From assembly GCA_965217775.1 (NCBI GenBank), contig CBDCJH010000002.1, positions 1,344,001 to 1,408,000 on the forward strand: a stretch of 64,000 nt of DNA, read 5' to 3'. The notes under the pieces were generated by a model that was not told the DNA's origin, made no database searches, and worked only from the letters and a program-made list of their open reading frames with translations. Shown one piece after another: positions 3,401 to 46,266 of this stretch (the stretch's first letter is position 1; every line of letters begins with the position of its first letter). Source of the DNA: Acidobacteriota bacterium. GTDB taxonomy: Bacteria > Acidobacteriota > UBA6911 > RPQK01 > JAJDTT01. The position numbers and the translations under genes are program-made.

Positions 3401-3530
3401 GGCGGCACGCGCCTTCGTTGAGTTGTCTCGGACCAACCAGGTCCTGGTCTTTACCTGCCACCCGACGGTGGTTGAATTATTCCAAGAGGCAGCGGGAGAG
3501 ATGAGCCCGGATTTGATCCGCGTTGGGTAG
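408..3530 (+). CDS. YhaN-like AAA/SMC-type ATPase with long coiled coil and central TM hairpin
   Basis: GTG at 408 gives 'MRIQGFRIEGFGRF', Walker A 'YGPNEAGKST', signature 'LSRGTREQLFLSLR', Walker B 'VVVDEVLVNFD', H-loop 'FTCHP'. Confidence 0.9.
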   Translation: MRIQGFRIEGFGRFADHAVGPFDHPVTLIYGPNEAGKSTYLAFIRTILFGFPRRLGNQHYPPLSGGRHGGRIDLVSGDGSRYSVHRIQGRGAGPVTTTGAGGENLDERVLAQLLGHHSRDVFESVFAFTLEELHSGDLLGKSSVNRQIYSAGMGVTKLPAVMRTLQSEREALFRKGGSVNRIARTARKLGEIEARLRGIATNAAAYGRLTTRLQEVEARLVALNQIRRHGQNRLDRRRQLQDAWEDWNDLITIERQLSELPAIDDFPADGIRRLEALEERLRGARREYDSARTSVEEVKSKTTVRIEHDAIVDRTDEVRNLGRLRGAFDQSVRDLPKRQAELENYQNDLAKTLRELGPDWDQQRLDHFDLSLAVREEISRHEERLRQAREGLGRSESDLEQAQARLNEASHSVERAKEELESAPRPKYDAAGIRRRRNQIRMARVQLDRYAREAQRAADLKRQLDGVYQTGSPKAASDMKWLPVLCAAFGIALAVAGTMAGGTVLAMGMVTSLFLIGLAVYLHVRNRSDSGMAESPIAGPIRRSLEAARRRLVTIRSELDETAAEMGLRGINESVLTGAEETLDAESSRLVQWERLREVLDRGKGSLQRRAARKDEKAENVERALRRVDAAKQAWEAWLGERSLRTTFNPEAMGELRGQVELGRNQFSEVRNWRQRITAIQEDIDSYTAMVASLASSFEVEFDPGDGQAVAAAADTLIDLHGRVAQRVRDRSNAADDLRMAERELQERYQQLSDAEAEMAGLLQSGGATDAEHFRRRAERFRQRTELGERKREVGGRLQRISGPGEHLQSLEERLENTDLQSILACINEVRDELAEADEEIQTLSTERGGIRNDLDRLIGEEESSGWRMERHLLLEQIRGHAREWVIRTLVHRLLETAQNKFERERQPGVVRHAERFFGRITGGRYPQVYAPLGERTIIVTDGTGRRKSPQELSRGTREQLFLSLRFGLIRELGQRTEPLPVVVDEVLVNFDPDRALRAARAFVELSRTNQVLVFTCHPTVVELFQEAAGEMSPDLIRVG

Positions 3531-3606
3531 ATTCCGGTCAAGTTTCCACGAAGGTCGGACAGGACCAGGTTCGGCAATCAGTGGAGGGTACTGGAACAGC
3601 GGTGAA

Positions 3607-3692
3607 CGTAGGGGCACCCCTTGTGGGTGCCCGCTGTCGCTCCTTGCTGATCGGCCCGGGCAGGGCGACCACACACAAGGGTCGCCCCTACG
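3607..3692. repeat. Inverted doublet of REP-like hairpins
   Basis: CGTAGGGGCACCCCTTGTGGGTGCCCG (3607-3633) and inverted AGGGCGACCACACACAAGGGTCGCCCCTACG (3662-3692); GTAG foot plus hairpin, also seen near 30160-30230, 38323 and 47690-47717. Confidence 0.8.
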
Positions 3693-3701
3693 CTCATTCC
3701 T

Positions 3702-3920
3702 GTGAAAACCGTGAAAACCGGGTTGACATTGGGTGTCCGCAACTTGTTCAATGTTGTTCCCGACGAGAACACAGTTGGACAGTCGCGGAGTGGGCGACTC
3801 GAAGATTCCGCTGGCAATTTGATCATCGACTCGCCGGGCATCTTCGTCTTCTCGCGCCGGTCTGCCCCGTTCGGCTTCAACGGTGGATTTCTCTACGCTC
3901 GCTACAGTGTTCGGTGGTAA
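3702..3920 (+). pseudogene. Orphan C-terminal fragment of a TonB-dependent receptor
   Basis: 'LTLGVRNLFNVVPD...APFGFNGGFLYARYSVRW*' resembles the last barrel strands of a TBDR with terminal aromatic residue; no upstream barrel coding sequence. Confidence 0.7.
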
Positions 3921-3958
3921 CCAATTGCAAATGTGAACGTGGAACGGAGTTGAAGCAG

Positions 3959-4792
3959 ATGAAGAAGAAGATCGCATCTCTCGCCATTTTGGTGTTCGGA
4001 TTTCAGGGCATGGCAGCAGCCCAGGATTCCATCTATTCGGCATCCGGAGATCTCGTCTTCGCCAGCAAGTACATCTGGCGCGGGCTGCGAGCGACCAATG
4101 ACTGGAGCCTGCAGCCGGCGATGACCCTGGGAATCGGCGGCTTCTCCGCCAATGTCTGGGGGACGATGGACCTGACCGCCGTAAACCCGGGCGATGCCTT
4201 GCCGATCCAGCCTGGTGACGGGCTCAAGGGGAAGTTTTCCGAAGTCAATTACGTCTTTTCCTACGATCACTCTTTTGAAGGCGCCACGGTCAGCGCGGGC
4301 ACCATTATCTATGTCTTTCCCGAACGGTCGGCTTCGCTGCCTGGGACCACCGAGATCTACGGAGGAGTGAGCCTGGATTCGGTGCCTCTGGCTCCTTCGT
4401 TTACTCTCCATGTGGATATGGACGAGAGCCAAGCCGGCGGTGGAAGCGCCGGACTGTACTTTCTTATCGCAGCCGGACACAGTTTCCCGCTCCAGCACGA
4501 CGTCCTGACCAGTTTCGACTTGTCCGCAACCGTGTCGCTCGTAAACGCCGGGTACACTGATTTCTTTTATAGTGTGAGTTCCGGCGGTTTCCATGACGCC
4601 AATATCACGGCGACCCTTCCCTTCACCATCAACGACAACTGGTCCGCCGGGGTTTTCGTCACCTATAGCGGCCTCATCGGCCAAGCGATTCGAGACAGCC
4701 AGTTGCAGGACCCGCGGCAACCAGCGAAACCTAGCGGCGCCTATCTGGCAGATACGCTCTGGGGTGGTTTCAGCCTGAGCGTCTCGTTCTAG
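3959..4792 (+). CDS. Outer-membrane beta-barrel protein (TIGR02001/Gcw_chp-like putative porin)
   Basis: Signal peptide MKKKIASLAILVFGFQGMAAA, motif 'SKYIWRGL...SLQP', terminal Phe 'GFSLSVSF'; GGAG RBS upstream. Confidence 0.75.
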   Translation: MKKKIASLAILVFGFQGMAAAQDSIYSASGDLVFASKYIWRGLRATNDWSLQPAMTLGIGGFSANVWGTMDLTAVNPGDALPIQPGDGLKGKFSEVNYVFSYDHSFEGATVSAGTIIYVFPERSASLPGTTEIYGGVSLDSVPLAPSFTLHVDMDESQAGGGSAGLYFLIAAGHSFPLQHDVLTSFDLSATVSLVNAGYTDFFYSVSSGGFHDANITATLPFTINDNWSAGVFVTYSGLIGQAIRDSQLQDPRQPAKPSGAYLADTLWGGFSLSVSF

Positions 4793-4822
4793 TCGTTGGG
4801 CGCTGAACCGAATCGTATTGCG

Positions 4823-5010
4823 ATGCAGTTACCAAGGGTTGTGTTGCGCGCCGTCAGCGGCGTTCTGGCGGCCGTGGTTCTCATCGGCATGGTGGCCGGG
4901 GCCGGGGCGCAGCCACGCCAGTCCCGCTGGTACGTGGGCGGAGGGGCCGGGGTGAACTGGCCGTCCAGGATGGAGCAGGAGGGCCACAATCTGGATACCA
5001 CCTGCTATCC
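4823..5010 (+). pseudogene. 5' half of an outer-membrane beta-barrel gene interrupted by the integrated element
   Basis: Signal peptide then 'WYVGGGAGVNW...HNLDTTCYP'; continues in frame at 14743 when the att repeats are joined. Confidence 0.85.
4999..5010 (+). repeat. attL core (12-bp direct repeat CACCTGCTATCC)
   Basis: Identical to 14731-14742; lies within GGATA-N8-TATCC (4993-5010). Confidence 0.9.
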
Positions 5011-5116
5011 CGATCAGCCGCTCCTGATAATTGACCATTATGGGGGATAGCTTGGGGATTATCAAATTCTCCCCGGCCGCGGTGGATGGGGAACATGTCG
5101 AAGGGAGGACTAGAAG

Positions 5117-5542
5117 ATGAGTTGCAAAGGACGATGTTTGGTCAGAACGAAGAACCCACGAACGGCGGAGGAGTTGATAAATTTGAGGCTCGATGGCCTT
5201 TGGGTCCGAGAGTTTCTGTGGCCGATGCCAAAGGACGGCGGCAGCGCCCACATCTGCCGGTCCTGTTACAAAAAGGCAGAGGTCATGCCGCAAGACGACG
5301 ACGCCAGACGGTTACGCGAGAGAAGGCGCGCCGCAGGCGACGGTCGGCACTCTACTGGTGACAACCGGATCATCGACTTGGTATTGGGGATCTCCATGCG
5401 ACTGGAGATCTGCCGTATACCGGGTTTCGACTTCATTTACTTCTGTGAGTGGTGCGAAACTCAAGAACTTGGTCTGATCGCTGACACAGAGGCTCTGGAG
5501 CGGCTGCCGGAAGATTGCCACTTCAAGAGCATCTCCGACTGA
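5117..5542 (+). CDS. Cys-rich hypothetical protein (possible zinc-binding)
   Basis: Strong RBS AAGGGAGGA; CxxxC, CxxC (CRSC, CEWC) pairs. Confidence 0.6.
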   Translation: MSCKGRCLVRTKNPRTAEELINLRLDGLWVREFLWPMPKDGGSAHICRSCYKKAEVMPQDDDARRLRERRRAAGDGRHSTGDNRIIDLVLGISMRLEICRIPGFDFIYFCEWCETQELGLIADTEALERLPEDCHFKSISD

Positions 5543-6191
5543 CGCCTGCGGTGAACTAGCCCCTGTCACCGGAAAATGGTAAGGTGAGGGCCGAGTCGGA
5601 CAGGGTGCTACCACACTGGGACTTTCAAGCTAACCCCTTGCACCCTGTCCGTGTTCCATCTTCTGTCAGGGGTTCCAGATAGAATTCCCGGCAGCTTGAA
5701 AGTTCTATCTCGGGACATTTCCAACATCCTGGATAACAGCCTCAAGCCGCGTTCGTTTGCTGTGGTCCATGCGCGGGCCGGACGCTCGATCAAGGCGATC
5801 TCCAACAGCGGGATCGACGGCGTGACACGGGACCTTCAAATCACGCGCGGCAACCCCCACGCAACGGGTAAACAGGCTCGTGCCTGCCTCGAAGCTGGGT
5901 CCAGGGCCGGAGGGGTGGTGGGTACAGTGGCCACCATGGAAATGTGCTGGACTACCGCAAGCAGGCAACTCCTGAACTAGCGGGCTCAAGATCTAACAGG
6001 GAAGTCAGACGGGGAACGGTTCACGCCTCGCGCGTAGGATCTGAAGACCCCTCTGATTTTTCCGATCCGCCGTAGGCGGGGGAGGAGAAAGCAGACGGGG
6101 TTCCCTAATTGCAGTACCCAATCTTTCCCCCGGTATGGTCCTGGGGTTAGTCAAGGGAGAAGGTGTGGTCAGAGGAAAAGGAGATTGAGTC

Positions 6192-6398
6192 ATGGCTGAA
6201 ACACTGTCCACTGAATTGGAAACCCTCCTCAGGCAAGAACGCATGATTCGTGAGTTCGTGCTGTCCCTTGATGGCAGTGACTCATTCACCCGTGAGATTC
6301 GTGATTTGGCGGAGGGACACCGCGTGGAGCAACTGAAGTCAATCCGGGACAATATCGAGAAGCAGGCCCAACCTGTGGTGAAGGGTCCATGCAAATAG
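6192..6398 (+). CDS. Small helical hypothetical protein
   Basis: RBS AAGGAG upstream of ATG; 68 aa with amphipathic helical composition. Confidence 0.6.
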   Translation: MAETLSTELETLLRQERMIREFVLSLDGSDSFTREIRDLAEGHRVEQLKSIRDNIEKQAQPVVKGPCK

Positions 6399-6426
6399 GC
6401 ACCAGCCTAATTGCAGGGTGTAGAAC

Positions 6427-6750
6427 ATGACGTGGCGAAAGGAGTCCGACATTGTGGACAACTGCCGACGCTGTGACGCCACCCTAAGCGATGGCTGCCT
6501 CCCTTCTCCTTGCGGCAAGCTGGAAGGCGGCTCTCAGGATTCCGGGGCCACATTGTGCCCCACGTGCCGAATGCTCTACTTCAGGGAGGCGGGAAAGCGA
6601 TCCGGCAGGATACGGCGACGGTGGCGGGAGGATCGGGATATCGGGATCGCCCACTTCAAGAAGGAGGGGATGACGAATAAACGGATTGCCGAGATTTCCG
6701 AGTGTTCCGAGCGCACTGTCTACTACGCCCTCAAGCGTCTTAACATCTGA
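6427..6750 (+). CDS. Zn-ribbon plus helix-turn-helix DNA-binding protein
   Basis: CRRC...CPTC, then 'GKRSGRIRR...GMTNKRIAEISECSERTVYYALKR' (HTH pattern). Confidence 0.7.
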   Translation: MTWRKESDIVDNCRRCDATLSDGCLPSPCGKLEGGSQDSGATLCPTCRMLYFREAGKRSGRIRRRWREDRDIGIAHFKKEGMTNKRIAEISECSERTVYYALKRLNI

Positions 6751-6940
6751 TCCTGCTACAATGAACCCCGCTTGAATCCAGAGCAACCAGGTCTCCATAA
6801 CATGACCTTGGAGGCCAACCAGGGCCGGGTCCATAGCTATGCTGCGACCAGGCTCGGCCCTGATCCTTCCCTCCTTCCTTCCCATCCTAAAAAGAAGTAC
6901 CGTCACCGGTCTTTTTACTAACTTCCAAGTGTGTTGATCT

Positions 6941-7240
6941 TTGATCGAGGGATTCTGCACACTCGAAATCGTGAGGACTTCAATCGTCAAGCGATGGGGA
7001 CCACGGACCACGACGCCTTCCTACTGGGGGTCTGTGTTGAGACCGGAATGGATCGCGTCCATGCGAAGGCACCGTCTCCACGAGCAGACCCGGCGGATTG
7101 CCTTGCCCTTCCTGGACCGAAACCAACCCGGTGCGCCTCGTAGTCTGATGTCCACGGAAGAGGCGTGGCTGCGGCTCAAGACTGCCGACCAGCTCATCCG
7201 CAAAGGCATCACCGAGTCCAGCAATGGAGAGGCCCGATGA
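6941..7240 (+). CDS. Hypothetical protein (start uncertain)
   Basis: Its stop overlaps the next start as ATGA (7237-7240), suggesting translational coupling. Confidence 0.45.
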   Translation: MIEGFCTLEIVRTSIVKRWGPRTTTPSYWGSVLRPEWIASMRRHRLHEQTRRIALPFLDRNQPGAPRSLMSTEEAWLRLKTADQLIRKGITESSNGEAR

Positions 7241-7623
7241 GCGTCCGGATCGGGATGGTCAATGAGAAGGAGGTCTTGTCCTCCATCGACCGGGTCATGC
7301 CCCGCGTTGAGACGGAGCTGACCACGGCCTTGGACGACGGCTTAGTATCAGCATTGCATCACTCTGAGCGCCGTGTGCCGGAGCGCACTGGTGATCTCAA
7401 GAGCACGGGCCGAGTGACCAAAACAGAGAAGGTAGGTGGCACTATCCTACGTGCTGAGATCGGCTATGGCGGCAAGGCGGCATCGGGACGGCAGGTTAAC
7501 TACGCCATCGAGCAGCATGAGAGCGTTCACAGTTCCGGAAGGAAGTACCTGCAAACCGCTATGGAACGTGCGGATCTTCCCGGTCGACTCGACAAGGCGA
7601 TGGCGAAGGCGCTGGGACTATGA
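7237..7623 (+). CDS. HK97 gp10-like neck/tail-completion protein
   Basis: 'RVPERTGDLKST...NYAIEQHE...GRKYLQTAME' follows the gp10 family pattern (PVxTGxL...YA..xE...xxL.PA); GGAGAGG RBS. Confidence 0.7.
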   Translation: MSVRIGMVNEKEVLSSIDRVMPRVETELTTALDDGLVSALHHSERRVPERTGDLKSTGRVTKTEKVGGTILRAEIGYGGKAASGRQVNYAIEQHESVHSSGRKYLQTAMERADLPGRLDKAMAKALGL

Positions 7624-7744
7624 CGGCGGCACCGGGGCACATAGTCACCTTGGGGACCCCTGTCCGGCTCGATCCGGCCCAGCCGGGCGGCGGGGTGGGG
7701 GTCAGCATCGAGTGCATGGAAAACGTTTTTACGGAGAGCCTGAA

Positions 7745-9412
7745 GTGAGCCTCCAGCGATACGAAAAGCGTCCATGTGGGTATTCGAGGTGTTCCAACCG
7801 CTTCGACGTCGTTGTGGGCCGTCGTGGGCGTCGTCGTGAGTATTGTCAGGCATCGTGCCGGGTGGCGGCCTGGAACCTGCGTAAACGGACCCATGAACCG
7901 CAGCCTGTGAAGGTGAAGGTTCCCAAGGACCCGTTCAGTGCATTGTGTTCGTGGGCGAAGGACACACTACGAATCCCTCCTGGACATCCCTTGTCCGGGC
8001 AGCCCATGTCCATTCCCAGGTTCGCCAAGCCCTTCCTCAAAGATGCGCTGGACCCTTCCAAATCCGAGTGCGCTCTGGTTTTGGGAAGGAAGAACGCAAA
8101 ATCTGCCATCTGCGCTGTGATTCTCTTGGGGTTTCTTGTGGGTCCCGTTCGGGCACATGGCTGGCGAGCGGGAATCTGTTCCATCTCCAAGGCGAAATCC
8201 AGGGAGTTGCGGGACCAGGTGGAGGACATCGCCAAGGCATCGGGACTGTCCGAAGACATCCTCTTCCGGAGATCCCCTTATCCGGGGTCCATCGAATCGA
8301 GCACCGGCAAGGTGGAGATCCTTTCAAGTGAAGGTGGTGGAGGACATTCTTCTTCCTTCGACCTTTCCATCATCGACGAAACGGGATTGCTCAAGGAGAA
8401 GGACCGGGGACTGGTCAACAGCATGAGGTCGGCGACTTCGGCGAAGGACGGCAAGGTTCTTCATCTGAGCATCTATGGAGACTCTCCTTTCATTCCGGAG
8501 TTGATCGGGATGAGGCACGAGCCCTTCATCAGCGTTCACGTTCATCAGGCGGACGAGGGTGCCCGTCTCGATGACCCGAAGCAGTGGAAGAAAGCGAATC
8601 CGGGGTTGGGGACCATCAAATCCATCTCCTACATGGAGAAGGCGGCAAGGAGGGCCATGCTCACCCCAAGCGACGAGGCCCACTTCCTGGCTCAGGACAT
8701 GAACAGGCCGGGGTCTCCGGATCGGATGATGCTTTGTTCGCCGTCGGACTGGGAACGGTGTCGGGTTCCAGTTCTTCCCCCGCGTTCGGGTCCCTGCCGC
8801 ATGGGGGTGGACCTTGGGGGCAGTTCTGCCATGACCTGCGCGGTTCTGTGGTTTCCCGACACGGGCCGCATGGAGACCTATGGAGCCCTGCCGGGGGTGC
8901 CGTCGATCAAGCACCGGCAACGGAAAGACCAATCCCGCTACGATCTCATGTGCCGATCCGGGGAGTTGCAGGTCTATGCAGGACATCGAACCGTTCCGGT
9001 GGACAAGTTCCTCCGTTACATGGCGGATGTCGTAAAGGGGGAGAATCTGGTCTCCATCGGTTCAGACCGATACCGGGATGCTGAAACGAGGCAGTTCGTC
9101 GACCAATCCGGACTCCCGTGGTTGAGGAAGTGGCTGTGGAGAGGCACGGGAGCATCGGCCACGGCGGACGGCAGCCATGACATTCGATCTTTCCAGCGTG
9201 CGGTCCTGAACCAGGAGATCAAGCACGACGGCGGCCTGATGATGTCATCGGCCATCAGTAACTCCAGCTTGAGGTTCCGGAACAACAACCCGGCCCTGGA
9301 GCGTTCTGGCCCTGGTCGAGTCGATGCCCTGCAAGCGGGAGTCATTGCCGTGGGGACCAGCACGGTCAAGGTGGCGAGATCCAGTTGGCGATACCGGGGG
9401 CGGGTTGGATGA
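7745..9412 (+). CDS. terL: Terminase large subunit (HK97-type) with N-terminal Cys4 zinc-finger extension
   Basis: Walker A 'GRKNAKS', Walker B 'LSIIDETG', 'WKKANPGLG', nuclease 'GVDLGGSSAMT', C-terminal 'RVDALQA'; GTG start at 7745 after GGAG. Confidence 0.9.
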   Translation: MSLQRYEKRPCGYSRCSNRFDVVVGRRGRRREYCQASCRVAAWNLRKRTHEPQPVKVKVPKDPFSALCSWAKDTLRIPPGHPLSGQPMSIPRFAKPFLKDALDPSKSECALVLGRKNAKSAICAVILLGFLVGPVRAHGWRAGICSISKAKSRELRDQVEDIAKASGLSEDILFRRSPYPGSIESSTGKVEILSSEGGGGHSSSFDLSIIDETGLLKEKDRGLVNSMRSATSAKDGKVLHLSIYGDSPFIPELIGMRHEPFISVHVHQADEGARLDDPKQWKKANPGLGTIKSISYMEKAARRAMLTPSDEAHFLAQDMNRPGSPDRMMLCSPSDWERCRVPVLPPRSGPCRMGVDLGGSSAMTCAVLWFPDTGRMETYGALPGVPSIKHRQRKDQSRYDLMCRSGELQVYAGHRTVPVDKFLRYMADVVKGENLVSIGSDRYRDAETRQFVDQSGLPWLRKWLWRGTGASATADGSHDIRSFQRAVLNQEIKHDGGLMMSSAISNSSLRFRNNNPALERSGPGRVDALQAGVIAVGTSTVKVARSSWRYRGRVG

Positions 9413-9711
9413 AGCGGTTGCACTCTCGAGAAATGGGGCGCCTGAGACGGCGGCTTTACAAGGAGCAGCAGAACAGGTGCGCGAAGTGTGGGCTGTTGTT
9501 CTTGTTGAGGGAGATGGAGGTCCACCACGTTCAGCCACTCGCCGAGGGCGGAACCCACGACGACGATAACGTCCAGCTTTGGTGCCTGGATGACCACCAT
9601 GAGGCCACTCGATATCAGAACACCGATCCCGCCATTCGTGACCAGAAGAGAGACTGGCGGGTGTTTCTACGAACGGAAGAACAAAGAATCTTTAGGAGGG
9701 TTCGAGCATGA
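9409..9711 (+). CDS. HNH endonuclease (gp74-like packaging cofactor)
   Basis: 'CAKCG...EVHHVQPLAEGGTHDDDNVQLWCLDDH'; ATGA overlaps with terL and capsid genes. Confidence 0.9.
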   Translation: MKRLHSREMGRLRRRLYKEQQNRCAKCGLLFLLREMEVHHVQPLAEGGTHDDDNVQLWCLDDHHEATRYQNTDPAIRDQKRDWRVFLRTEEQRIFRRVRA

Positions 9712-10979
9712 CCACGAAACAGAAACTGGAACTCCGGCGGAGTGAAGTCAGATCCAGGCTGGCCGAGATCGCCGGTCTGGACGAGTTGACGGACGAGATC
9801 CGCACCGAGTCCAAGGCACTGGAAACCGAGTTTGCCGACTTGGAGACGAGATACAGGGCGGCTCTGCTTTCCGAGCAGGACAACGGCAAGCTGGACGAGA
9901 CCGATACCAAGGGCCGGAAGCTCCGGAGCTTGGTCAAGAGGGCATCCCTTGTGAGCTATCTCTCGGAGAGCGTGCGCCAGAACGAGGTCCGGTCCGGATC
10001 TGCGGAGGCGGAGCTCAGGTCCGAGTTGTTGGGTAAGAACGCCCAGCCCGGACAGGTCCCCCTGGCGGTGCTCGCTCCGGAGGTCGTGAAGGAACGGAAA
10101 CGGGAGACTCGCGCCACCGATACGGCTACGGATGTGGGGGCCATCGGAATTCCGAACCGGCAAAACCAGATCATCCGGAGGGTGTTCTCGCAGAGCGCCA
10201 CTTCGTTCTTGGGAATCAGAATGCCCAGCGTCGCAATCGGCGAAACGTCGTTCCCGTACCTGAGCGCCGGGGTCAGTCCTGCGATGAAGGCCAAGGGGGC
10301 GCGTGCGGATGCGGAGGCGGCCACCTTCTCGGCCGAGTCCGTTGGGCCAACCCGTCTCAGTGCCCGATACCTGTTGAGGGTCGAGGACCTGCACCGTCTG
10401 GCCGGTATGGAAAGTGCGCTCAGGGCTGATTTGCGCGGCTCCCTGAGTGAAAGCCTTGATGCCCAGACCCTTGTTGGCGACGGAGTCGCCCCGAACGTGA
10501 CCGGGTTGTTGTCTGAACTGCCTGCGGCTGCGGCAGCGGGTGCGGCGGAGTTCTCGTGGCAGGAGGCGGTGCAAGTGATCGCCGATCAGGTCGACGGAAA
10601 ATATGCCGCCGATCCGAGCATGGTCCGGATGCTCTGTGCGAGTGATTTGTACTCGAAAATGGCCATCCGATTGGTGGCGGCCTCCTCAAGCGGCTCAAGT
10701 GTGAGCGCGGCATCGAGGTACATCCAGGAAATCAGCGGCGGACTGCGAGTCAGCGCGAACATGCCAGCCGCCGACTCCAACATCTCCACGGTGCTGTTAA
10801 GTCGGATGGGACACGCCGGCGCTTTTGCCCCGATCTGGGGAAATTCGTTCGAGCTCATTCGCGACCCGTATAGCCATTCGGCCACTGGCGAGGTGGCTCT
10901 GACGGCGATCATTTTGTGGGCATTCGTGGTGCCCCGTGAAGACGTTTTCGCACTGCGGAAGCTGAGAATCGCGGTCTGA
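9708..10979 (+). CDS. Major capsid protein, HK97 fold, with N-terminal coiled-coil delta domain
   Basis: Coiled-coil N-terminus, 'LDAQTLVGDGVAPNVTGLL', 'LIRDPYSHSATGEVALTA...VPREDVF'. Confidence 0.85.
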   Translation: MTTKQKLELRRSEVRSRLAEIAGLDELTDEIRTESKALETEFADLETRYRAALLSEQDNGKLDETDTKGRKLRSLVKRASLVSYLSESVRQNEVRSGSAEAELRSELLGKNAQPGQVPLAVLAPEVVKERKRETRATDTATDVGAIGIPNRQNQIIRRVFSQSATSFLGIRMPSVAIGETSFPYLSAGVSPAMKAKGARADAEAATFSAESVGPTRLSARYLLRVEDLHRLAGMESALRADLRGSLSESLDAQTLVGDGVAPNVTGLLSELPAAAAAGAAEFSWQEAVQVIADQVDGKYAADPSMVRMLCASDLYSKMAIRLVAASSSGSSVSAASRYIQEISGGLRVSANMPAADSNISTVLLSRMGHAGAFAPIWGNSFELIRDPYSHSATGEVALTAIILWAFVVPREDVFALRKLRIAV

Positions 10980-10982
10980 GTC

Positions 10983-11405
10983 ATGCCGATCGGCATCTTG
11001 AGAGGTCCAGCCGGAGCCGGTAAGTCCCAGTGGTTCGACGAGAACGCCGAACCGGGCGACTTGTGGCTTGACATCACGGCAATCTGGGCCGCCGTCCGGG
11101 GTCTCGAAAGGGGTCCCGATGGTCGCTATCCGGTGCGCTTGGACGACGACCAGGGCCTACGAATGGCTGCCTATCTGAAGGCCACCGGGATCGCCTTTGC
11201 CGAGCGTGAGGGCCTGGACGGATGGGCTACGACCAGTTCATCGGCACCGGAGGCCGTGGAGCGGATTCGGGAGCAGGGGGCAACGGGTCGGGCGCAAACC
11301 ATAGATCCTGGTGAAGCCGTCGTTCGGCGCAGGCTTGCCGATCCCGACACCGGCGAGTTGGACCCTCAATGTGATTCCGCGCTGTTGCGTTGGTACAGCG
11401 TATGA
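10983..11405 (+). CDS. Small P-loop NTPase/kinase-like protein
   Basis: Walker A 'ILRGPAGAGKSQW'; 140 aa; ATGA overlap with the protease gene. Confidence 0.75.
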   Translation: MPIGILRGPAGAGKSQWFDENAEPGDLWLDITAIWAAVRGLERGPDGRYPVRLDDDQGLRMAAYLKATGIAFAEREGLDGWATTSSSAPEAVERIREQGATGRAQTIDPGEAVVRRRLADPDTGELDPQCDSALLRWYSV

Positions 11406-11851
11406 AGATTGTTACGAACGTTGAAATCCGGGAGTCGTCCAAGGGAGTCAAGCGGCTCCACGCCGTCCTCATCCAAGAGGGCCGAGCCTCCACTGGAGGC
11501 CGTTCGGAGGTGATCATACCCGGAGCAATCACATGGCCCGATGCCGGGATTTCTTTAAGGGCCGTGCATCGGGGTCCCGCCATAGGAGTGGCGCATCCGG
11601 CGAGGCATCCGAACGGGGAAATCAGGATTGCCACGTTAGCGACCGGTGCCGTGATCCAGGCTGTCGAGTCAGGCAAGACCGGCATGAGCATCGAGTTCAC
11701 GGCGCTTCGCGAGAAAACCACCAAAGGCGGAATCCGTGAGGTACAGGCTGCTTATGTGGATGCTGCCGCACTCGTGAGCAATCCCGAATATGAGCAGGGC
11801 CGGGCCGAGATCCGATCCCGGAAGCGGAGGTCACAGCTATGGCGACTCTGA
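11402..11851 (+). CDS. HK97-type prohead maturation protease
   Basis: 'EVIIPGA...LRAVH...TGMSIEF...ALVSNPEY' matches the His/Ser motifs of the U35 protease family. Confidence 0.8.
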   Translation: MKIVTNVEIRESSKGVKRLHAVLIQEGRASTGGRSEVIIPGAITWPDAGISLRAVHRGPAIGVAHPARHPNGEIRIATLATGAVIQAVESGKTGMSIEFTALREKTTKGGIREVQAAYVDAAALVSNPEYEQGRAEIRSRKRRSQLWRL

Positions 11852-12231
11852 GCCCCTGGCCCGAAAGTGTGGGAGACCGAAACGCGGCTCTCCGTGAACT
11901 GGAACGCCATCTTAAGTATCCCGAGATCGACATCGACATCGGGGAGGAACGGGAGCGGCTGGAACTGGTCGGGGAGGCGGCTTCGGCCCTGGTCGAGCGG
12001 TACAGTCCTGGAGCTCCACAACGTATTCGGGATTTGGCCGTCGTCAGGACGTGTCAATACCTGCTTGCCCGATCCGGTGCCAGCGTGTCCAAGGTGACGG
12101 AGGAGTTGGGGGACTGGAACCACACCTTGGAATTCATGCCCAGTATGGTTTCGGCGCTCCGGGCGTCCGGATCAATGTCCCTATTGAGTCCCTTCAAGAT
12201 CCGCAGGGCGCGAAAGGTGACGGCGGCATGA
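11839..12231 (+). CDS. Head-tail connector (gp6-like)
   Basis: 'AASALVERY...APQRIRDLAV...LLSPFKIRR' is a gp6/gp15-like pattern; located in the head cluster. Confidence 0.65.
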   Translation: MATLSPWPESVGDRNAALRELERHLKYPEIDIDIGEERERLELVGEAASALVERYSPGAPQRIRDLAVVRTCQYLLARSGASVSKVTEELGDWNHTLEFMPSMVSALRASGSMSLLSPFKIRRARKVTAA

Positions 12232-13304
12232 AGTGGCAGGGACGGGAGGTCGACTTCGGTTTACGTGAGACTCGATCCAGCGGGTACACGGACCGGTTGA
12301 CCCAGCTCCTGGTGAGTCAGGCATCCACCGTGACCGAGACCGATCCCTCCCGGACTGGCGCTCTGGAGGTCTGCGCCGGGATTTGGGGCCGCGCCTTCGC
12401 ATCCGTGAAAGTGGAGCCGCAGACGGCGGCGCAGGTGCTCTCTCCCAACGTCCTGAACTTGATCGGCCGCCAACTGATCCGACAGGGTGAAGTCCTGTTC
12501 CGGGTCCAGGTGGTCAATGGTCAGCGCGTCCTGACCCCTTCGAGCGCCTGGGATGTCTCGGGAGGCGCGGACCCGTCCACATGGAGATTCACATGCTCTT
12601 TCAGCGGACCCGACTCCGAACAGGAGGCTACGCTGGAGTGGGACGAGGTGGTTCTGCTGACCTGGGCCACCGAGCCTGGAGCGCTCTACCGGGGCCTGGG
12701 ACCGCTTGAGGTGGGAGACTTGACCGGATCCCTGTGTGGGTCCTTGGAGAAGTCCCTCAGCAGCGAAATGGCGACGCCCAACGGATACTTGCTGACGGTC
12801 CCACAAGTGGACGAAGTGCCGGATGACGAGACCGATCCACTCGAAGATATGAGGGCCGATTTGAAGGGGCTCGACGGCGGTCTTTCATTGGTCGAAACGA
12901 CTCAAGGCGGGGGCGGCGAAGGCCGGGTAGCGGCTCCGGCGCGGGATTGGGTTCCGTCCCGGCTCGGTCCGTCTCCTCCCAAGGCGTTGTGCGACCTGCG
13001 CGAGGATGTCCACAGGACGGTCTTGTCCGCCTGCGGGATCTCCCCGGCGATGGTCGGCGGGCGTTCGGACGGAACTGCAAGGCGAGAAGCCTACCGAACA
13101 TTTGCGCATCTGTCCTTGACCCCAATGGGCCGGATGGTTGCAGCGGAACTGGCGGACAAGCTGGAGATCCCTGGCCTTCGATTCAACTGGTCGAACCTGA
13201 TGGCGGGAGACATCACAGGCAAGGCGAGGGCGTTCAGGAGCTTGGTTCAGGGCGGCATGGACGTAGCGAAAGCCGCCAGCCTCTCGGGGCTGATGACGGA
13301 TTGA
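12228..13304 (+). CDS. Phage portal protein (HK97-like, 358 aa)
   Basis: 'LIRQGE', 'YRGLGPL', 'VLSACGISPAMVG', 'F..LSLTPM...ELADKL'; ATGA overlap with the upstream gene. Confidence 0.85.
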   Translation: MKWQGREVDFGLRETRSSGYTDRLTQLLVSQASTVTETDPSRTGALEVCAGIWGRAFASVKVEPQTAAQVLSPNVLNLIGRQLIRQGEVLFRVQVVNGQRVLTPSSAWDVSGGADPSTWRFTCSFSGPDSEQEATLEWDEVVLLTWATEPGALYRGLGPLEVGDLTGSLCGSLEKSLSSEMATPNGYLLTVPQVDEVPDDETDPLEDMRADLKGLDGGLSLVETTQGGGGEGRVAAPARDWVPSRLGPSPPKALCDLREDVHRTVLSACGISPAMVGGRSDGTARREAYRTFAHLSLTPMGRMVAAELADKLEIPGLRFNWSNLMAGDITGKARAFRSLVQGGMDVAKAASLSGLMTD

Positions 13305-13442
13305 CGATAAACCCGCAGACCAGGACATGACGCTGGCAGCGGGCCGTCACTTGAAGATACACAGGTGATGGAAAACTCCCCGGTCGTGGGAACGGCGGGG
13401 AGTGAGTCAGGTTGTCCATGATGAGTTCGACCTGACAACAGT

Positions 13443-13471
13443 GGGGCGGGTGCTTCGAACACGCCCGCCCC
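13443..13471. terminator. GC-rich hairpin between convergent portal and integrase genes
   Basis: GGGGCGGG...CCCGCCCC stem; no clear U-tract. Confidence 0.35.
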
Positions 13472-13656
13472 ATCTTCCTCCCCCGCACGTAAGGGACCCT
13501 GCCCCATGGTTGGCCGGGCGTAGACTACCGGTGTCGGAGTGCACCCTACGTCCGCCACACGATTCCCTGGCCATCGGCGGCCCGTGCTGTCCTGGAGGTG
13601 TCAAAGCCATACCTGAGGACCCTCGAAACGCTCAGGCGCTCCTCTTGACTGGGCTT

Positions 13657-14640
13657 TCAGTCATCTTCCATGAACCGCGCGACGGCGTTCTTCTTGGCCC
13701 GTTCTCCCGAGACGTAATGGACGACCATCGCCGGACTTTTCCAGCCGCCGATCTCGGCAACGTCTTGCAAGCTAGCTCCCCGCCGCGTCAGTTCTTGAGC
13801 ACATCCTCTCCGCAAGGAATGGCCTCGGACTCGTTTCAACTCCACCCCGGCCTGCCGGGCGCGGACCCGGATAATGCGGCGCACGGTGTCGGTATGCAGA
13901 TCTTTGTCCAGAACGTTCGTGTTGGTGCAAGGACGGAAGAGCGGCCCGGTCTGGATTCGGGCTCTCTTGATCCACGCTCGCAGCAGCCGGGACGCGCGTT
14001 TCGTCAGGTAGCCATTACGTCCCGATCCCTGCGGGTCCGTCTTGCTCCGGCGGACGACGATCAGCGCCGATCCGTCCGCTTGAAAGGACACGTCTTCGAT
14101 TTCCAGGGCGCAGAGCTCACCGATCCGCAGGCAGCCGTCGTACATGACGCTGAGCAAGGCGGCGTCCCGGGTCCCCCAGAGCGGCCGGAACGTGGACTCG
14201 ATGATGGCCGACCCCACCATCTCCCGGACTTCATCGGCGCTCAGTCCCCGAGCCAGCTTGGTGCCCCGGTTCCAACCTTCTTTGGAGACGATACCGAGGA
14301 CTTCCTTGGTCTGCTCTCCAACCGGATCCAGCTCGTCTTTGGCCCTGGACCGCCATCTCGCGGCGTTGACGATCCCCCGGACGCTGGCCGGGGCGAGGCT
14401 GTCCGCGTCGAAGCGATGCTCGCAATACTCGGCCAGCAGGTCGTCGGTCAGATCACGACCTGCCAACCACTCGTCCAGTTTTCTCCAGACGTTTCGATAG
14501 GTTCGGCGGGAATTGGCGCTCAGCTTGCGGAGCTTGCGCCGGTAGCGGATGTCAGCCCGTGTCTGCATGACTGGTGTCCTTTCGGGTTCGGGTTCCCGTA
14601 CCGCGCGGCAGGCCGGGGTGAATTGAAGGATTCGTGCCAT
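13657..14640 (-). CDS. Cre-like tyrosine recombinase/integrase
   Basis: Catalytic R ('RDAALL..GCLRIGEL'), K ('RRSKTD'), HxxR ('GHSLRRG'), W ('GGWKS') and Y ('MVVHY'); RBS GAGGAGG upstream of the ATG at 14640. Confidence 0.92.
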   Translation of the reverse strand: MARILQFTPACRAVREPEPERTPVMQTRADIRYRRKLRKLSANSRRTYRNVWRKLDEWLAGRDLTDDLLAEYCEHRFDADSLAPASVRGIVNAARWRSRAKDELDPVGEQTKEVLGIVSKEGWNRGTKLARGLSADEVREMVGSAIIESTFRPLWGTRDAALLSVMYDGCLRIGELCALEIEDVSFQADGSALIVVRRSKTDPQGSGRNGYLTKRASRLLRAWIKRARIQTGPLFRPCTNTNVLDKDLHTDTVRRIIRVRARQAGVELKRVRGHSLRRGCAQELTRRGASLQDVAEIGGWKSPAMVVHYVSGERAKKNAVARFMEDD

Positions 14641-14730
14641 GTGTAACCTCCTCGGTTGCCCTCTACCTATCTCTTTCACCAAAACGAAAACGATCGAGGG
14701 CATTATTTTTTGAGGAGCGGTCTCGGAGAG

Positions 14731-14742
14731 CACCTGCTATCC
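14731..14742 (+). repeat. attR core (CACCTGCTATCC)
   Basis: Identical to 4999-5010; about 90 bp upstream of the integrase start. Confidence 0.9.
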
Positions 14743-15583
14743 GGACGAGGACTGCGATCGTCTACCTGGCGGCGGACCGCCAGGCTACCGCTGGCGCTAT
14801 GATGTCGAAGGGAAGAACGGAACCGCGTACGAGTTTTCCGTCGGCCGCAGGTTCAGCCATCTCCGAGTGGAATTTTCGGTCACCCGGCAGAAGAACGACC
14901 TCGAATCGGACTTTTCCGGGATCAGCTACGTGGACGGATCCCCCATCCTCTCCATCGAAACCGACCTTCAGGCGGAAGGAAGTTCCTCGGTCGGGGATCT
15001 GATCGCCCGCACGCTGTCGTTGAACCTCTACTATGACTTTCCGATGGCGTCGAATCGCTTTGCGCCTTATCAGCCCGTGGCAAAAGTCATCACGGCATTC
15101 GACCGTCCCTGCATCCCGGCGGACGGCGTTGCGATTCGGGCACATACTCCCGGTATGCACCCGAATCGCGCCTTGTCCGGCGGGCGCAGGAACGGTCTCG
15201 GTGCTCGCGGGACTTTCACCACGGACTGTTATGTCGGCGCAGGACTGGGGGCTTCCTTTGTCGAAGTGACCGATCTGTTTTATGAGAGCTCGTACAGCGG
15301 TCCCGGCGGGCCCTACGATCCTCCCTTGGAGTTTTACTCCAGTCGGACCAACGAGAACCTGTCCGATACGATTCTGGCGAAACACCTGTACGTCGGCGTC
15401 GACTTCGGATTGAGTGAAAGGACGCTGTTGGGCGTGAAGTTGTCCCACCTGCGGATGGGGGACTTCGCGGCCACGGGGGGCTACGACTTCCATCCGATCC
15501 CGGGATTGACCAGCGAGACCCGGTTCAGCGGCATGAACCACTGGTTGCTGGGGCTCACCGTCAAGTTGTTGCTCGGCCGCTGA
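14743..15583 (+). pseudogene. 3' half of the interrupted outer-membrane beta-barrel gene (contains in-frame MITE)
   Basis: 'TCYPDEDCDRLP...LRVEFS...LNLYYDF...FAPY[MITE]YVGAGLG...LYVGVDFGLSERTLLGVK...WLLGLTVKL', an OmpA/OmpW-like barrel pattern. Confidence 0.85.
15071..15228 (+). mobile_element. 158-bp MITE, copy 1 (TSD TTAT)
   Basis: 18-bp imperfect TIRs CAGCCCGTGGCAAAAGTC / GACTTTCACCACGGACTG; TTAT at 15067-15070 and 15229-15232. Confidence 0.9.
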
Positions 15584-15631
15584 CCGGCAAACACCGACCT
15601 GGAACCAATCTGGGCCGTGCCATACCCGTGG

Positions 15632-16447
15632 TCAGAGTTCCAGCTTGCCCTCGAAGACCATATCCTTGAGCTTGAACTTCTTGGCGACCTTACGACCCAT
15701 GAGCCGTGTGATGAACTCGATGTTCTTTTCCTTCACGATGATGGGGTTCGACGTGGGGCGGGGAAAGACGAAGATCAACTCGAAGCCGGACTGGCCGGTT
15801 CGCGCGTTCAGAAGATTAACCTGTTCCTTTCTCATCTGAACGGCCTGAAGAGAAATGGGCTCGCGGCCCTTGACCTTGAGGAAAGATTCGGACCTGAGGC
15901 GTTCGATGACCGCCTGCCGCCGATCGGGGGGAATCCTCGTCATGCGGGCGGGCAGTCCGGAGACGCCGATGATGAAGTAGTTCTCTTCCGGAGCCAGGAG
16001 TTCGGCCAACTCGGCCGTCGTCTCGGCCTGATCTCCGAACCGGGCTCGAGCGAATGCCTGCTTGATGGGCAGGGCGCTGTACCATCGCAGCGTCAGATTG
16101 ATGGCCGGGGGAAACCCCCGTCCCATTCCACGACCGCCAAAGCCTCGCCCCCCGCCTCGACCTCCGCCACCTCGACCTCCGCCGCCTCGACCCCCACCCG
16201 TGCCTAAGCCGCGCCCCGACCGGTTGGGCCCGTCGCGACGACCCGTGCGCATGGTGGTTCCAGTGACTCCCGGGCGCCGCTGCAAGCTCACGGTCAGCTC
16301 CTTTGCCCAGGGGGACTTGTTGAGCATCCGCATCACTTCCTTCTCGGACCAGTCGGAGTACGCGGATTCCTTCCAGAATTTACGGGGCCAGACCGGGGTC
16401 GTGGTCAGCAACAGGATGCAGGAGACAAGCAGGAACGATTTCCTCAT
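15632..16447 (-). CDS. Secreted hypothetical protein with RGG-rich insert
   Basis: Signal peptide, 'FWKESAYSDWSEKEVMRMLNKSPWA', Gly/Arg tract, C-terminal 'FKLKDMVFEGKLEL'. Confidence 0.75.
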   Translation of the reverse strand: MRKSFLLVSCILLLTTTPVWPRKFWKESAYSDWSEKEVMRMLNKSPWAKELTVSLQRRPGVTGTTMRTGRRDGPNRSGRGLGTGGGRGGGGRGGGGRGGGRGFGGRGMGRGFPPAINLTLRWYSALPIKQAFARARFGDQAETTAELAELLAPEENYFIIGVSGLPARMTRIPPDRRQAVIERLRSESFLKVKGREPISLQAVQMRKEQVNLLNARTGQSGFELIFVFPRPTSNPIIVKEKNIEFITRLMGRKVAKKFKLKDMVFEGKLEL

Positions 16448-16482
16448 GGGCTAACCTCGTTTCTCAGGCGACGGCCACGAAT

Positions 16483-46071: not shown

Positions 46072-46108
46072 CCTTCACTGGTAGCCTGCGCCGCAGAAAT
46101 TGATCTAA

Positions 46109-46266
46109 CAGCCCGTGGCAAAAGTCATCACGGCATTCGACCGTCCCTGCATCCCGGCGGACGGCGTTGCGATTCGGGCACATACTCCCGGTATGCACCC
46201 GAATCGCGCCTTGTCCGGCGGGCGCAGGAACGGTCTCGGTGCTCGCGGGACTTTCACCACGGACTG
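46109..46266 (+). mobile_element. 158-bp MITE, copy 2 (TSD CTAA)
   Basis: Appears identical to copy 1; CTAA at 46105-46108 and 46267-46270. Confidence 0.92.

Follow-up and report, generated by a model that had tools for sequence, protein, structure and literature searches.

Insertion of the element into a host gene

We analysed a 64,000-nt stretch of DNA (the window), comprising positions 1,344,001–1,408,000 of contig CBDCJH010000002.1 in assembly GCA_965217775.1 of an Acidobacteriota bacterium, which carries a 9.7-kb insertion encoding an HK97-type phage head and a tyrosine integrase. A repeat scan of the window showed that this element is bounded by an exact 12-bp direct repeat, CACCTGCTATCC, with one copy at 4999–5010 (the attL core) and the other at 14731–14742 (the attR core). 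A 12-mer repeated within 13 kb might arise by chance, and the repeat was therefore tested by frame restoration, by a search for orthologues and against empty-site DNA.

When 5010 was joined to 14743 in silico, the 5′ part of the interrupted host gene (4823–5010, plus strand) and its 3′ part (14743–15583, plus strand) formed one open frame, which runs from the ATG at 4823 to 15583 and reads NLDTTCYPD up to the junction and EDCD beyond it. The rejoined frame has a signal-peptide-like N-terminus and its sequence resembles that of an outer-membrane beta-barrel protein. Queried with the 3′ part, two genomes of the same genus (loci L064 and L065) proved to carry uninterrupted orthologues, with open frames of 298 and 307 amino acids (aa) and 81–92% identity. 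The DNA of both loci has a single copy of the core, the left flank corresponding to the left arm of attL in the window and the right flank to the right arm of attR; this single-core site is attB, the empty site. Given the restored frame, the intact orthologues and the one-core empty site, the repeat is not a chance occurrence and the ends of the element are exact, as the initial annotation had held in calling both att cores intact. The element was inserted by site-specific recombination at the 12-bp core inside the host outer-membrane protein gene, and the empty site in the two sister genomes gives separate support for the insertion being recent.

ARAGORN found no tRNA gene in the whole window, and no Rfam family matched at gathering thresholds in the region 3000–17000. 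Promoter and terminator scans gave results at or below shuffle expectation.

Head, packaging and integration genes

Open reading frames (ORFs) of the element were compared with PHROGs (15 ORFs), Pfam (18 ORFs) and NCBIfam (14 ORFs). Between the cores lie four to five small regulatory or unassigned ORFs, followed by genes for a gp10-like protein, the large terminase (TerL), an HNH endonuclease, the major capsid protein (MCP), a P-loop protein, a protease, a gp6-like protein and the portal, all on the plus strand, and by a convergent integrase gene on the minus strand. The core genes are all intact and none requires a frameshift. Five ATGA stop/start overlaps, at 7237, 9409, 9708, 11402 and 12228, were confirmed as first annotated.

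Four of the head-module genes were identified by direct family matches. TerL (7712–9412) matches phrog_9 (1.4e-45) and the nuclease domain family PF20441 (1.3e-9); its start is probably the GTG at 7712 or the GTG at 7745, within a frame that is open from 7436, and it is ∼25–26% identical to the nearest TerL proteins of cultured phages, HK022-type proteins included. The HNH endonuclease (9409–9711), the packaging partner of TerL, matches PF01844 (1.7e-10) and phrog_144 (1.7e-10), and its gene lies directly 3′ of that for TerL in 17 of 19 loci. The MCP (9708–10979) is of HK97 type, with a match to PF05065 over residues 150–303 (3.3e-6) and a score of 35.3 bits against TIGR01554, where the cut-off is 27.5; its N-terminal ∼140 aa look coiled-coil and delta-domain-like, that is, like a fused scaffold-like segment. 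The portal (12228–13304) is a compact protein of 358 aa that matches PF04860 (1.9e-12).

Two further genes were assigned through their relatives. The gp10-like neck or head-tail joining protein (7237–7623) has a BLASTP match of 5e-10 to its homologue in the related locus L017 (7095–7520), which in turn matches PF04883, HK97-gp10_like (7.9e-8), and TIGR01725 (1.3e-5). The same slot is filled in other members by proteins of phrog_169, ‘tail completion or Neck1’ (L028), or phrog_442, ‘head-tail adaptor’ (L057, L059 and L060). The prohead maturation protease (11402–11851) is divergent and had no direct Pfam match; it is 35–62% identical to proteins in seven loci, including L025, L014 and L017, and is classed as S78-like because relatives match Peptidase_S78 (PF04586), at 6.1e-5 for L025, above the cut-off, and at 8.4e-40 for L030, a distant relative reached by iterated search.

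The gp6-like head-tail adaptor (11839–12231) was assigned by fold. Its AlphaFold2 model (pLDDT 80.6) was compared with 48,161 chains using VIA-align, and 14 of the 15 top rows were neck, adaptor or portal entries of phages or gene transfer agents (GTAs), among them the Milano neck (Z 7.8), RcGTA 6tba_2A (Z 6.8) and HK97 gp6 3jvo_A (Z 6.8). The assignment rests on this enrichment for one functional class and not on the Z values alone. Foldseek gave no significant match for the model, and PDB sequences searched with alignment profiles of the adaptor and of the P-loop protein yielded none below E 0.1. The names originally given to the head-module genes are thus retained, by family for TerL, HNH, MCP and portal, by way of relatives for the gp10-like protein and the protease, and by fold for the gp6-like protein. 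The HK97-type head-and-packaging set is complete, with an MCP bearing a scaffold-like N-terminus, an S78-type protease, a portal, TerL and HNH, and two head-to-tail joining proteins are encoded with it.

The P-loop protein (10983–11405), with the Walker A motif GPAGAGKS, lies between the capsid and protease genes without an obvious role in a head operon, and does so also in L014, L017, L018, L020 and L062, which span two phyla. Its AlphaFold2 model (pLDDT 91) has a polynucleotide-kinase-like fold, the best Foldseek matches being T4 polynucleotide kinase (2ia5/1ly1, TM 0.64) and bacterial Pnkp1 (4xrp), with E about 1e-4 and TM scores of 0.6–0.68. The sequence gives weak matches to AAA_33 and a match of 1e-7 to phrog_4581, which is annotated as a terminase small subunit (TerS). 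Because the P-loop and HNH proteins both match this one PHROG, as though the two were fused in some phages, the sequence hints that the P-loop protein may be a packaging accessory.

The integrase (13657–14640, minus strand) is convergent with the head operon and of the Xer/Cre type, matching PF00589 (1.5e-22) and phrog_1 (2.2e-26); ‘Cre-like’, its first description, is a loose name that fits. The best NCBIfam models were XerA (8e-19) and XerD (8e-16), with XerC also matching, all below their cut-offs. Its start is most likely the ATG at 14640 behind an AGGAGG, not 14733.

We also noted an N-terminal motif in TerL, CxxC...(Y/F)C..CR..A...KR, which is zinc-ribbon-like and falls outside any Pfam family (window 7712–7900). 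It is conserved in the closest TerL relatives: one copy is present in the window and in L018 (about 7408–7560), and three are present in tandem in L014 (about 12300–12800, minus strand). Judged by its sequence, this motif may be a DNA-binding module that replaces TerS.

Small ORFs and functions not recognised

The small ORFs upstream of the head operon, all on the plus strand, gave few assignments. A Cys-rich frame of 141 aa (orfA, 5117–5542) matches nothing in Pfam, PHROGs or NCBIfam and has no homologue in the related loci, and it may not be a real gene. Two conserved hypothetical proteins, of 109 aa (orfB, 5651–5980) and 99 aa (orfE, 6941–7240), have no family match and have homologues at L017:5528–5956 (tblastn, 2.8e-12) and L017:6697–7146 (1.8e-18), respectively. 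The gene for orfE adjoins the head operon, its stop overlapping the start of the gp10-like gene at the 7237 ATGA. In the ESM Atlas, orfA had a low recognition value, and neither it nor the orfE homologue gave a lead that could be used. Between orfB and orfE lies the gene for a small DNA-binding protein (6427–6750) with a Cys-rich N-terminus and a C-terminal helix-turn-helix, which matches PF13384, HTH_23 (4.6e-6, above the cut-off), and phrog_3855 (6e-4); from its sequence, this protein could be a regulator.

Searches of Pfam, PHROGs and NCBIfam gave the ORFs of the element no match to any family of tail, lysis, primase or AlpA proteins, nor to a canonical TerS family, in line with what had been annotated from the sequence; the terS-annotated phrog_4581 is matched by the P-loop protein with its kinase-like fold. 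The largest unassigned ORF is the 141-aa orfA, and the window copy has no counterpart of the primase-replicase expected of a capsid-forming phage-inducible chromosomal island (cf-PICI). Between the cores there is no tail module and there are no lysis genes adjoining the head module, and outside them the host gene continues at once on either side.

Related loci and conservation of gene order

We examined 28 related loci by tblastn and iterated hidden Markov model searches. The collinear order TerL-HNH-MCP-protease-portal was found in 22 of them (L014–L018, L020, L024, L026–L032, L036, L037 and L057–L062), the other six (L019, L021, L022, L023, L025 and L038) being rearranged or decayed. An adaptor gene is present in most loci, a tyrosine integrase lies within a few kb in nearly all, and a gp10-like, Neck1-type or adaptor-type connector gene stands upstream of TerL in L017, L018, L028, L057, L059 and L060. 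The same architecture is conserved across several phyla. Exact repeats of at least 10 bp were not found at the element ends in L017, L022 or L024.

MCP relatives were found in 7 of 401 sampled genomes of the phylum (the window genome counted) and in three of five other genomes of the genus, with up to four copies in a single genome. A scan of genome contigs with a portal alignment found loci with 77% and 62% identity in metagenome-assembled genomes (MAGs) of Acidobacteriota, and further loci in MAGs of Longimicrobiales, Rhodospirillaceae and Thermodesulfobacteriota. Single-protein searches returned one genome relative, in a Dehalococcoidia MAG, and no viral relative, and a four-sequence portal alignment had no match among metagenome contigs. 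Six IMG/VR contigs of 5.5–16.7 kb carry the same portal type. A portal profile matched in 5 of 400 further Pseudomonadota genomes and, at E ≤ 1e-30, in 1,931 representative proteins out of 1.84 billion.

The synteny search proposed in the initial annotation thus found the same gene set and order in genomes, MAGs and IMG/VR contigs. The suggestion of a distinct family in Acidobacteriota held in so far as the lineage recurs there; it is not confined to that phylum, the family being present in genomes of Acidobacteriota, Pseudomonadota, Chloroflexota, Gemmatimonadota and Thermodesulfobacteriota and in IMG/VR contigs. On all three points on which the annotation had staked its reading the outcome was favourable, since none of the closest relatives is a full-length tailed prophage, the gene set is shared by other elements of ∼10 kb, and the unassigned ORFs are not ordinary terS or primase genes. 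Neither the MCP nor the portal had a tblastn match in 50,697 phage records. One of the 12.9-kb ‘Ralstonia phage’ records that matched TerL (L071) was rejected as a family member, its order being TerL-protease-... and one of its ORFs, of 936 aa, being of tape-measure size.

Some relatives carry genes that the window copy lacks. Genes for a phrog_66 excisionase/AlpA-like regulator occur in L015, L016, L027 and L059, and primase-like genes in L062 and L028. The lack of AlpA and primase genes, first put forward as a distinction from cf-PICIs, therefore applies to the subgroup of the window and not to the family, which as a whole is nearer to the cf-PICI plan than the window copy is. L017 (4751–5473) and L018 (4384–5094, minus strand) also share a homologous protein of ∼240 aa, encoded at the end opposite the integrase, for which the window has no counterpart. 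This protein has a hydrophobic segment at its N-terminus, matches no family and may be the product of an accessory gene.

Compared with the nearest relatives, the ratio of nonsynonymous to synonymous substitution (dN/dS) was 0.13–0.26 for the portal, P-loop and protease genes and 0.39–0.52 for the adaptor, gp10-like and integrase genes, with dS high or saturated; the MCP and HNH pairs were saturated. By these ratios, the core genes are under purifying selection.

These results bear on whether the element is what remains of a decaying prophage: a tailed HK97-like ancestor would have lost its tail and lysis genes by deletion, leaving an immobile head half. Head and packaging genes alone are indeed present, TerL is distantly related to that of HK022/HK97-type phages, and some relatives are plainly decayed: the L019 MCP gene and the L038/L046 portal gene each contain a stop, and L025 and L026 have split or partial genes. 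However, independent deletions would not yield one compact gene set in the same order at 22 of 28 loci from several phyla. The window copy also retains intact core ORFs with five coupled ATGA junctions, its core genes show purifying selection, its att cores are exact and its site is empty in two relatives, copies within one genome occupy different genes, and the MCP and portal have no detectable homologue in cultured phages. Of the readings considered here, the remnant is the one to which we give least credence, in agreement with the initial argument against a decayed prophage.

Metagenome contigs and a possible insertion polymorphism

The element is present in seven public sequencing runs from two studies, none of the runs listed being an RNA run; four were examined, all as assembled contigs. 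In these, flank contigs stop exactly at 5010 and start exactly at 14731, and element contigs start at 4981 or 4988 and end at 14760, the latter by the overlap of the assembly word length; these positions are graph branch points at the 12-bp core. Per-contig depth was 2–16 for the element and 31–89 for the flanks across the four runs and both studies. The contig breaks and the lower depth of the element are consistent with insertion polymorphism, in which most genomes with these flanks are without the element. Contigs of 8.3–11.7 kb, seen for 15 of 40 MCP relatives, were considered as free circles and rejected as evidence, because insertion polymorphism yields the same assembly result.

Targets and surroundings of the integrated copies

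Three further targets were resolved among the relatives. In L017, an insert of ∼9.8 kb separates the two parts of an SSF transporter gene (4262–4606 and 14462–16090); in L022, one of ∼9.2 kb separates those of another SSF transporter gene (4128–4892 and 13996–14943), with an imperfect 20-bp repeat at the homology breaks; and in L020, a HlyD-family gene (4414–4806 and 15111–16331) is split by ∼10.3 kb. With the outer-membrane protein gene of the window, all four resolved targets are disrupted envelope or transport genes, a number too small to establish a preference. One possibility prompted by this is that the host loses, on integration, a surface or transport protein that phages could use as a receptor.

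Such targets might also be expected if the element had been co-opted by its host as an excisable switch of envelope genes or as a GTA-like producer that packages other DNA, rather than acting as a helper parasite, and the coexistence of carried and empty states would fit the same idea. The sites differ between genomes, however, and the distribution is patchy (7 of 401 and 6 of 401 sampled genomes), which is the pattern of a mobile parasite rather than of a conserved host function, and four targets are too few to show preference. Nor does the element resemble a GTA: it has an integrase and att sites, an empty site in relatives, a patchy distribution and no tail genes, whereas GTAs have tail genes and no integrase (for RcGTA, PMC13669383). 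We consider co-option by the host very improbable.

The ORFs of 25 loci were scanned for tail genes against Pfam or PHROGs, L025 and L038 being left out and L031 having no ORF outside the core. In none of the 25 did a tail-category match fall within the stretch from the integrase to the opposite end of the head module. Such matches occurred at two loci only, L015/L040 and L059, in both cases beyond the integrase and outside the element. L014, L017, L018, L020, L022 and L024 are flanked by ordinary metabolic genes.

The two loci with tail genes differ in their surroundings. In L015 (15110–19553) and L040 (497–8917), a truncated major-tail-protein gene (profile positions 86–158 of 376) abuts the integrase end, with a tape-measure gene and large ORFs farther downstream; the tail region of a prophage, or of the remnant of one, may have been the target of the L015 element. 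L015 also has a second MCP-like gene (6234–7538) and a CI/LexA-like repressor. In L059, from a Pseudomonadota genome, an opposite-strand cluster (11221–17359) adjoins the element. It encodes a tail protein of 1,298 aa (phrog_4271, E 0) together with a glycoside hydrolase, a protein for tail assembly and the C-terminal part of a tape measure, and it resembles the distal end of an RcGTA-type cluster.

Two repeats were noted close to the insertion. The 3′ part of the interrupted host gene contains an in-frame insertion of a 162-bp repeat (54 codons) at 15067–15228, with further copies in the window at about 3600–3692 and 46106–46266 and at least 40 copies in the genome at 99–100% identity (40 scored of 308 first-look candidates). 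It is missing from the host-gene orthologues of the two sister genomes and from the metagenome contigs, and metagenome depth over it reaches 4,600–14,000; it looks like an element of the miniature inverted-repeat transposable element (MITE) kind that is actively spreading. The gene directly upstream of the interrupted gene (3581–4792) encodes a further putative outer-membrane protein, which matches MipA and Gcw_chp weakly. Metagenome contigs skip 68–85 bp at 3600–3685 in the upstream part of this ORF, where another short repeat seemingly lies.

Search for a helper phage and the question of autonomy

The genome that carries the element (97.9% complete, two contigs) was searched with seven families, which do not cover all tail types. 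The sole matches to PF20441 and PF05065 were the element's own. The results for the other five families, given with the evidence weighed below, show no sign of a resident helper, so that a helper would need to come from outside.

A missing helper would be expected if the element were an autonomous minimal virus that makes heads with portal and neck and no classical tail, and that relies on host-derived or divergent adsorption and lysis functions. The four or five small ORFs without assignment leave some room for such functions, the portal family is large, and HK97-type genomes of <11.6 kb, mostly without tail genes, have been reported from metagenomes (PMC13669383). Yet the unassigned ORFs total less than about 500 aa and differ between close relatives, so that they offer too little sequence, and too unstable a sequence, to be likely carriers of adsorption, ejection and lysis functions. 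The retention of both an adaptor and a gp10-like neck protein is also best explained by attachment to a tail. We judge an autonomous cycle to be improbable. We know of no precedent for an autonomous tail-less head-forming virus of this kind.

Comparison with known satellites and phages

We compared the element with cf-PICIs as set out in their descriptions (10.1101/2022.09.08.507074 and PMC10085698). According to these, cf-PICIs are defined by 11 core components and must lack tail and holin genes; they have a median length of 14 kb and 19 proteins, and hosts among Proteobacteria and Firmicutes; the proteobacterial order is capsid-protease-portal-connectors followed by hnh-terS-terL (10.1101/2022.09.08.507074). 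The element shares with them, and with their prototype EcCIEDL933, an integrase, MCP, protease, portal, connectors, HNH and TerL, and neither the element nor its counterparts at the 25 scanned loci gave a tail- or lysis-category match, tail and holin genes being those that the definition forbids. As to a regulator, the window has no AlpA or excisionase match and has the HTH_23 protein; the phrog_66 genes of four relatives and the primase genes of others are features shared between cf-PICIs and other members of the family.

The element differs from cf-PICIs in several respects. The window copy is without a recognisable AlpA, primase-replicase or TerS; it is 9.7 kb long with 13–14 genes; its integrase is of the Xer/Cre type and inserts within protein-coding genes; and its hosts, Acidobacteriota and other phyla, lie outside those of the cf-PICI survey, the separation from cf-PICIs being one by published description. 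Its TerL and HNH genes precede the capsid gene rather than following the connectors. The claim that its gene order is unlike that of cf-PICIs is only partly right, because this position of TerL/HNH and the missing TerS set it apart and the sub-order capsid-protease-portal is the same as in proteobacterial cf-PICIs.

The Streptomyces satellites MulchRoom and MiniFlayer, compared by description (PMC10690885), also have their own terminase, portal, capsid, scaffold, adaptor and HNH and no obvious replicase, and MulchRoom has a tyrosine integrase. Unlike the element they are 14–17 kb long, with direct terminal repeats, TerS and the conventional terminase-portal-capsid order; their helpers are virulent phages of Actinomycetota. 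The HNH-requiring cos phages HK97 and HK022 share with the element an HK97-fold capsid with a fused delta-like domain, an S78 protease, gp6-like and gp10-like proteins, and TerL with HNH, the TerL of HK022 being ∼25% identical. They are full phages of ∼40 kb, in contrast to the element, with TerS, tail, lysis and replication genes and the order terS-terL-portal-protease-capsid.

The ‘twilight-zone’ HK97-fold genomes from metagenomes, as presented in PMC13669383, are likewise <11.6 kb, with a capsid gene and mostly without tail genes, and a satellite lifestyle is one explanation proposed there for them. The groups described in most detail have no portal or terminase and are encapsulin-like, whereas the present family has a full set of portal, TerL and HNH and is integrated in genomes. 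RcGTA has a small HK97-type head, and its adaptor (6tba_2A) is among the best folds for that of the element; it differs in having tail genes in its cluster, no integrase, vertical inheritance and the packaging of host DNA (see also PMC13669383). The literature covered, to which supplementary tables that might list relatives did not belong, contained no description of the family, of its gene order or of capsid-forming satellites in Acidobacteriota.

Interpretation and proposed cycle

Taken together, the results lead us to favour, with moderate confidence, the reading of the element as a capsid-forming phage satellite that has been mobile recently and is now integrated, a member of a minimal new lineage that works in the manner of a cf-PICI.

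Several points weigh against this reading. Helper dependence, tail piracy, small heads and all functions are predictions. TerS, an AlpA-type regulator and a replicase were not recognised in the window copy with Pfam, PHROGs or NCBIfam, and the adaptor fold scores of Z 5–8 lie in a range that helical proteins can reach by chance. The host genome had no match to a tape measure (PF10145), sheath (PF04984) or Baseplate_J (PF04865) family, nor to the terminase families PF03354 and PF03237. No packaged form was seen. The attP-junction search suggested at the outset gave no circular attP joint among the 15 of 22 joints listed for the metagenome runs, which do not include the empty-site joint (5010 to 14743) either. 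The six IMG/VR contigs and L026 have no direct terminal repeat, and the metagenome depths are one figure per contig, not copy numbers.

If the element is indeed a capsid-forming satellite, its cycle might run as follows. On a helper-phage signal, the Xer/Cre-type integrase would excise a 9.7-kb circle, and MCP, protease and portal would build a small procapsid; by estimate from known satellite capsids, ∼9.7 kb would fit a shell of roughly T=3 to T=4. TerL and HNH would cut and package unit-length DNA in the cos manner, as in HNH-requiring HK97-like phages, and the zinc-ribbon-like extension of TerL may give the DNA recognition that is usually supplied by a separate TerS. The adaptor and the gp10-like protein would seal the filled head and offer a docking surface to helper-made tails. 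Replication would depend on helper or host functions or on one of the small unassigned ORFs, and particles would be released by helper lysis.

A further reading is that these are members of an ancient multi-phylum lineage of the smallest self-encapsidating double-stranded DNA elements, which at <10 kb dispense with TerS, perhaps replaced by the DNA-binding zinc ribbon fused to TerL, and with a replicase of their own, knock out envelope genes whose products could be phage receptors, and use the tails of unrelated helpers or a tail-free cycle. With 11.6 kb as the quoted floor for tailed phages and P4, elements of <10 kb lie below it. We regard this proposition as unlikely.

Capsid-forming satellites have been documented so far in Proteobacteria and Firmicutes, together with the separate Streptomyces family. 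If the proposed satellite cycle is correct, tail piracy extends to abundant and poorly cultured soil phyla, and about nine genes in 6 kb would be a minimal set with which to build, fill and close an HK97-type head without TerS. The 9.7-kb genome would then be a test of the minimum size for a self-encoded portal-bearing capsid, and the envelope-gene insertions and the polynucleotide-kinase-like gene in the head operon would be oddities open to experiment. Given the 1,931 representatives of the portal family, such elements may commonly transfer genes in soils and sediments and have been overlooked in that role.

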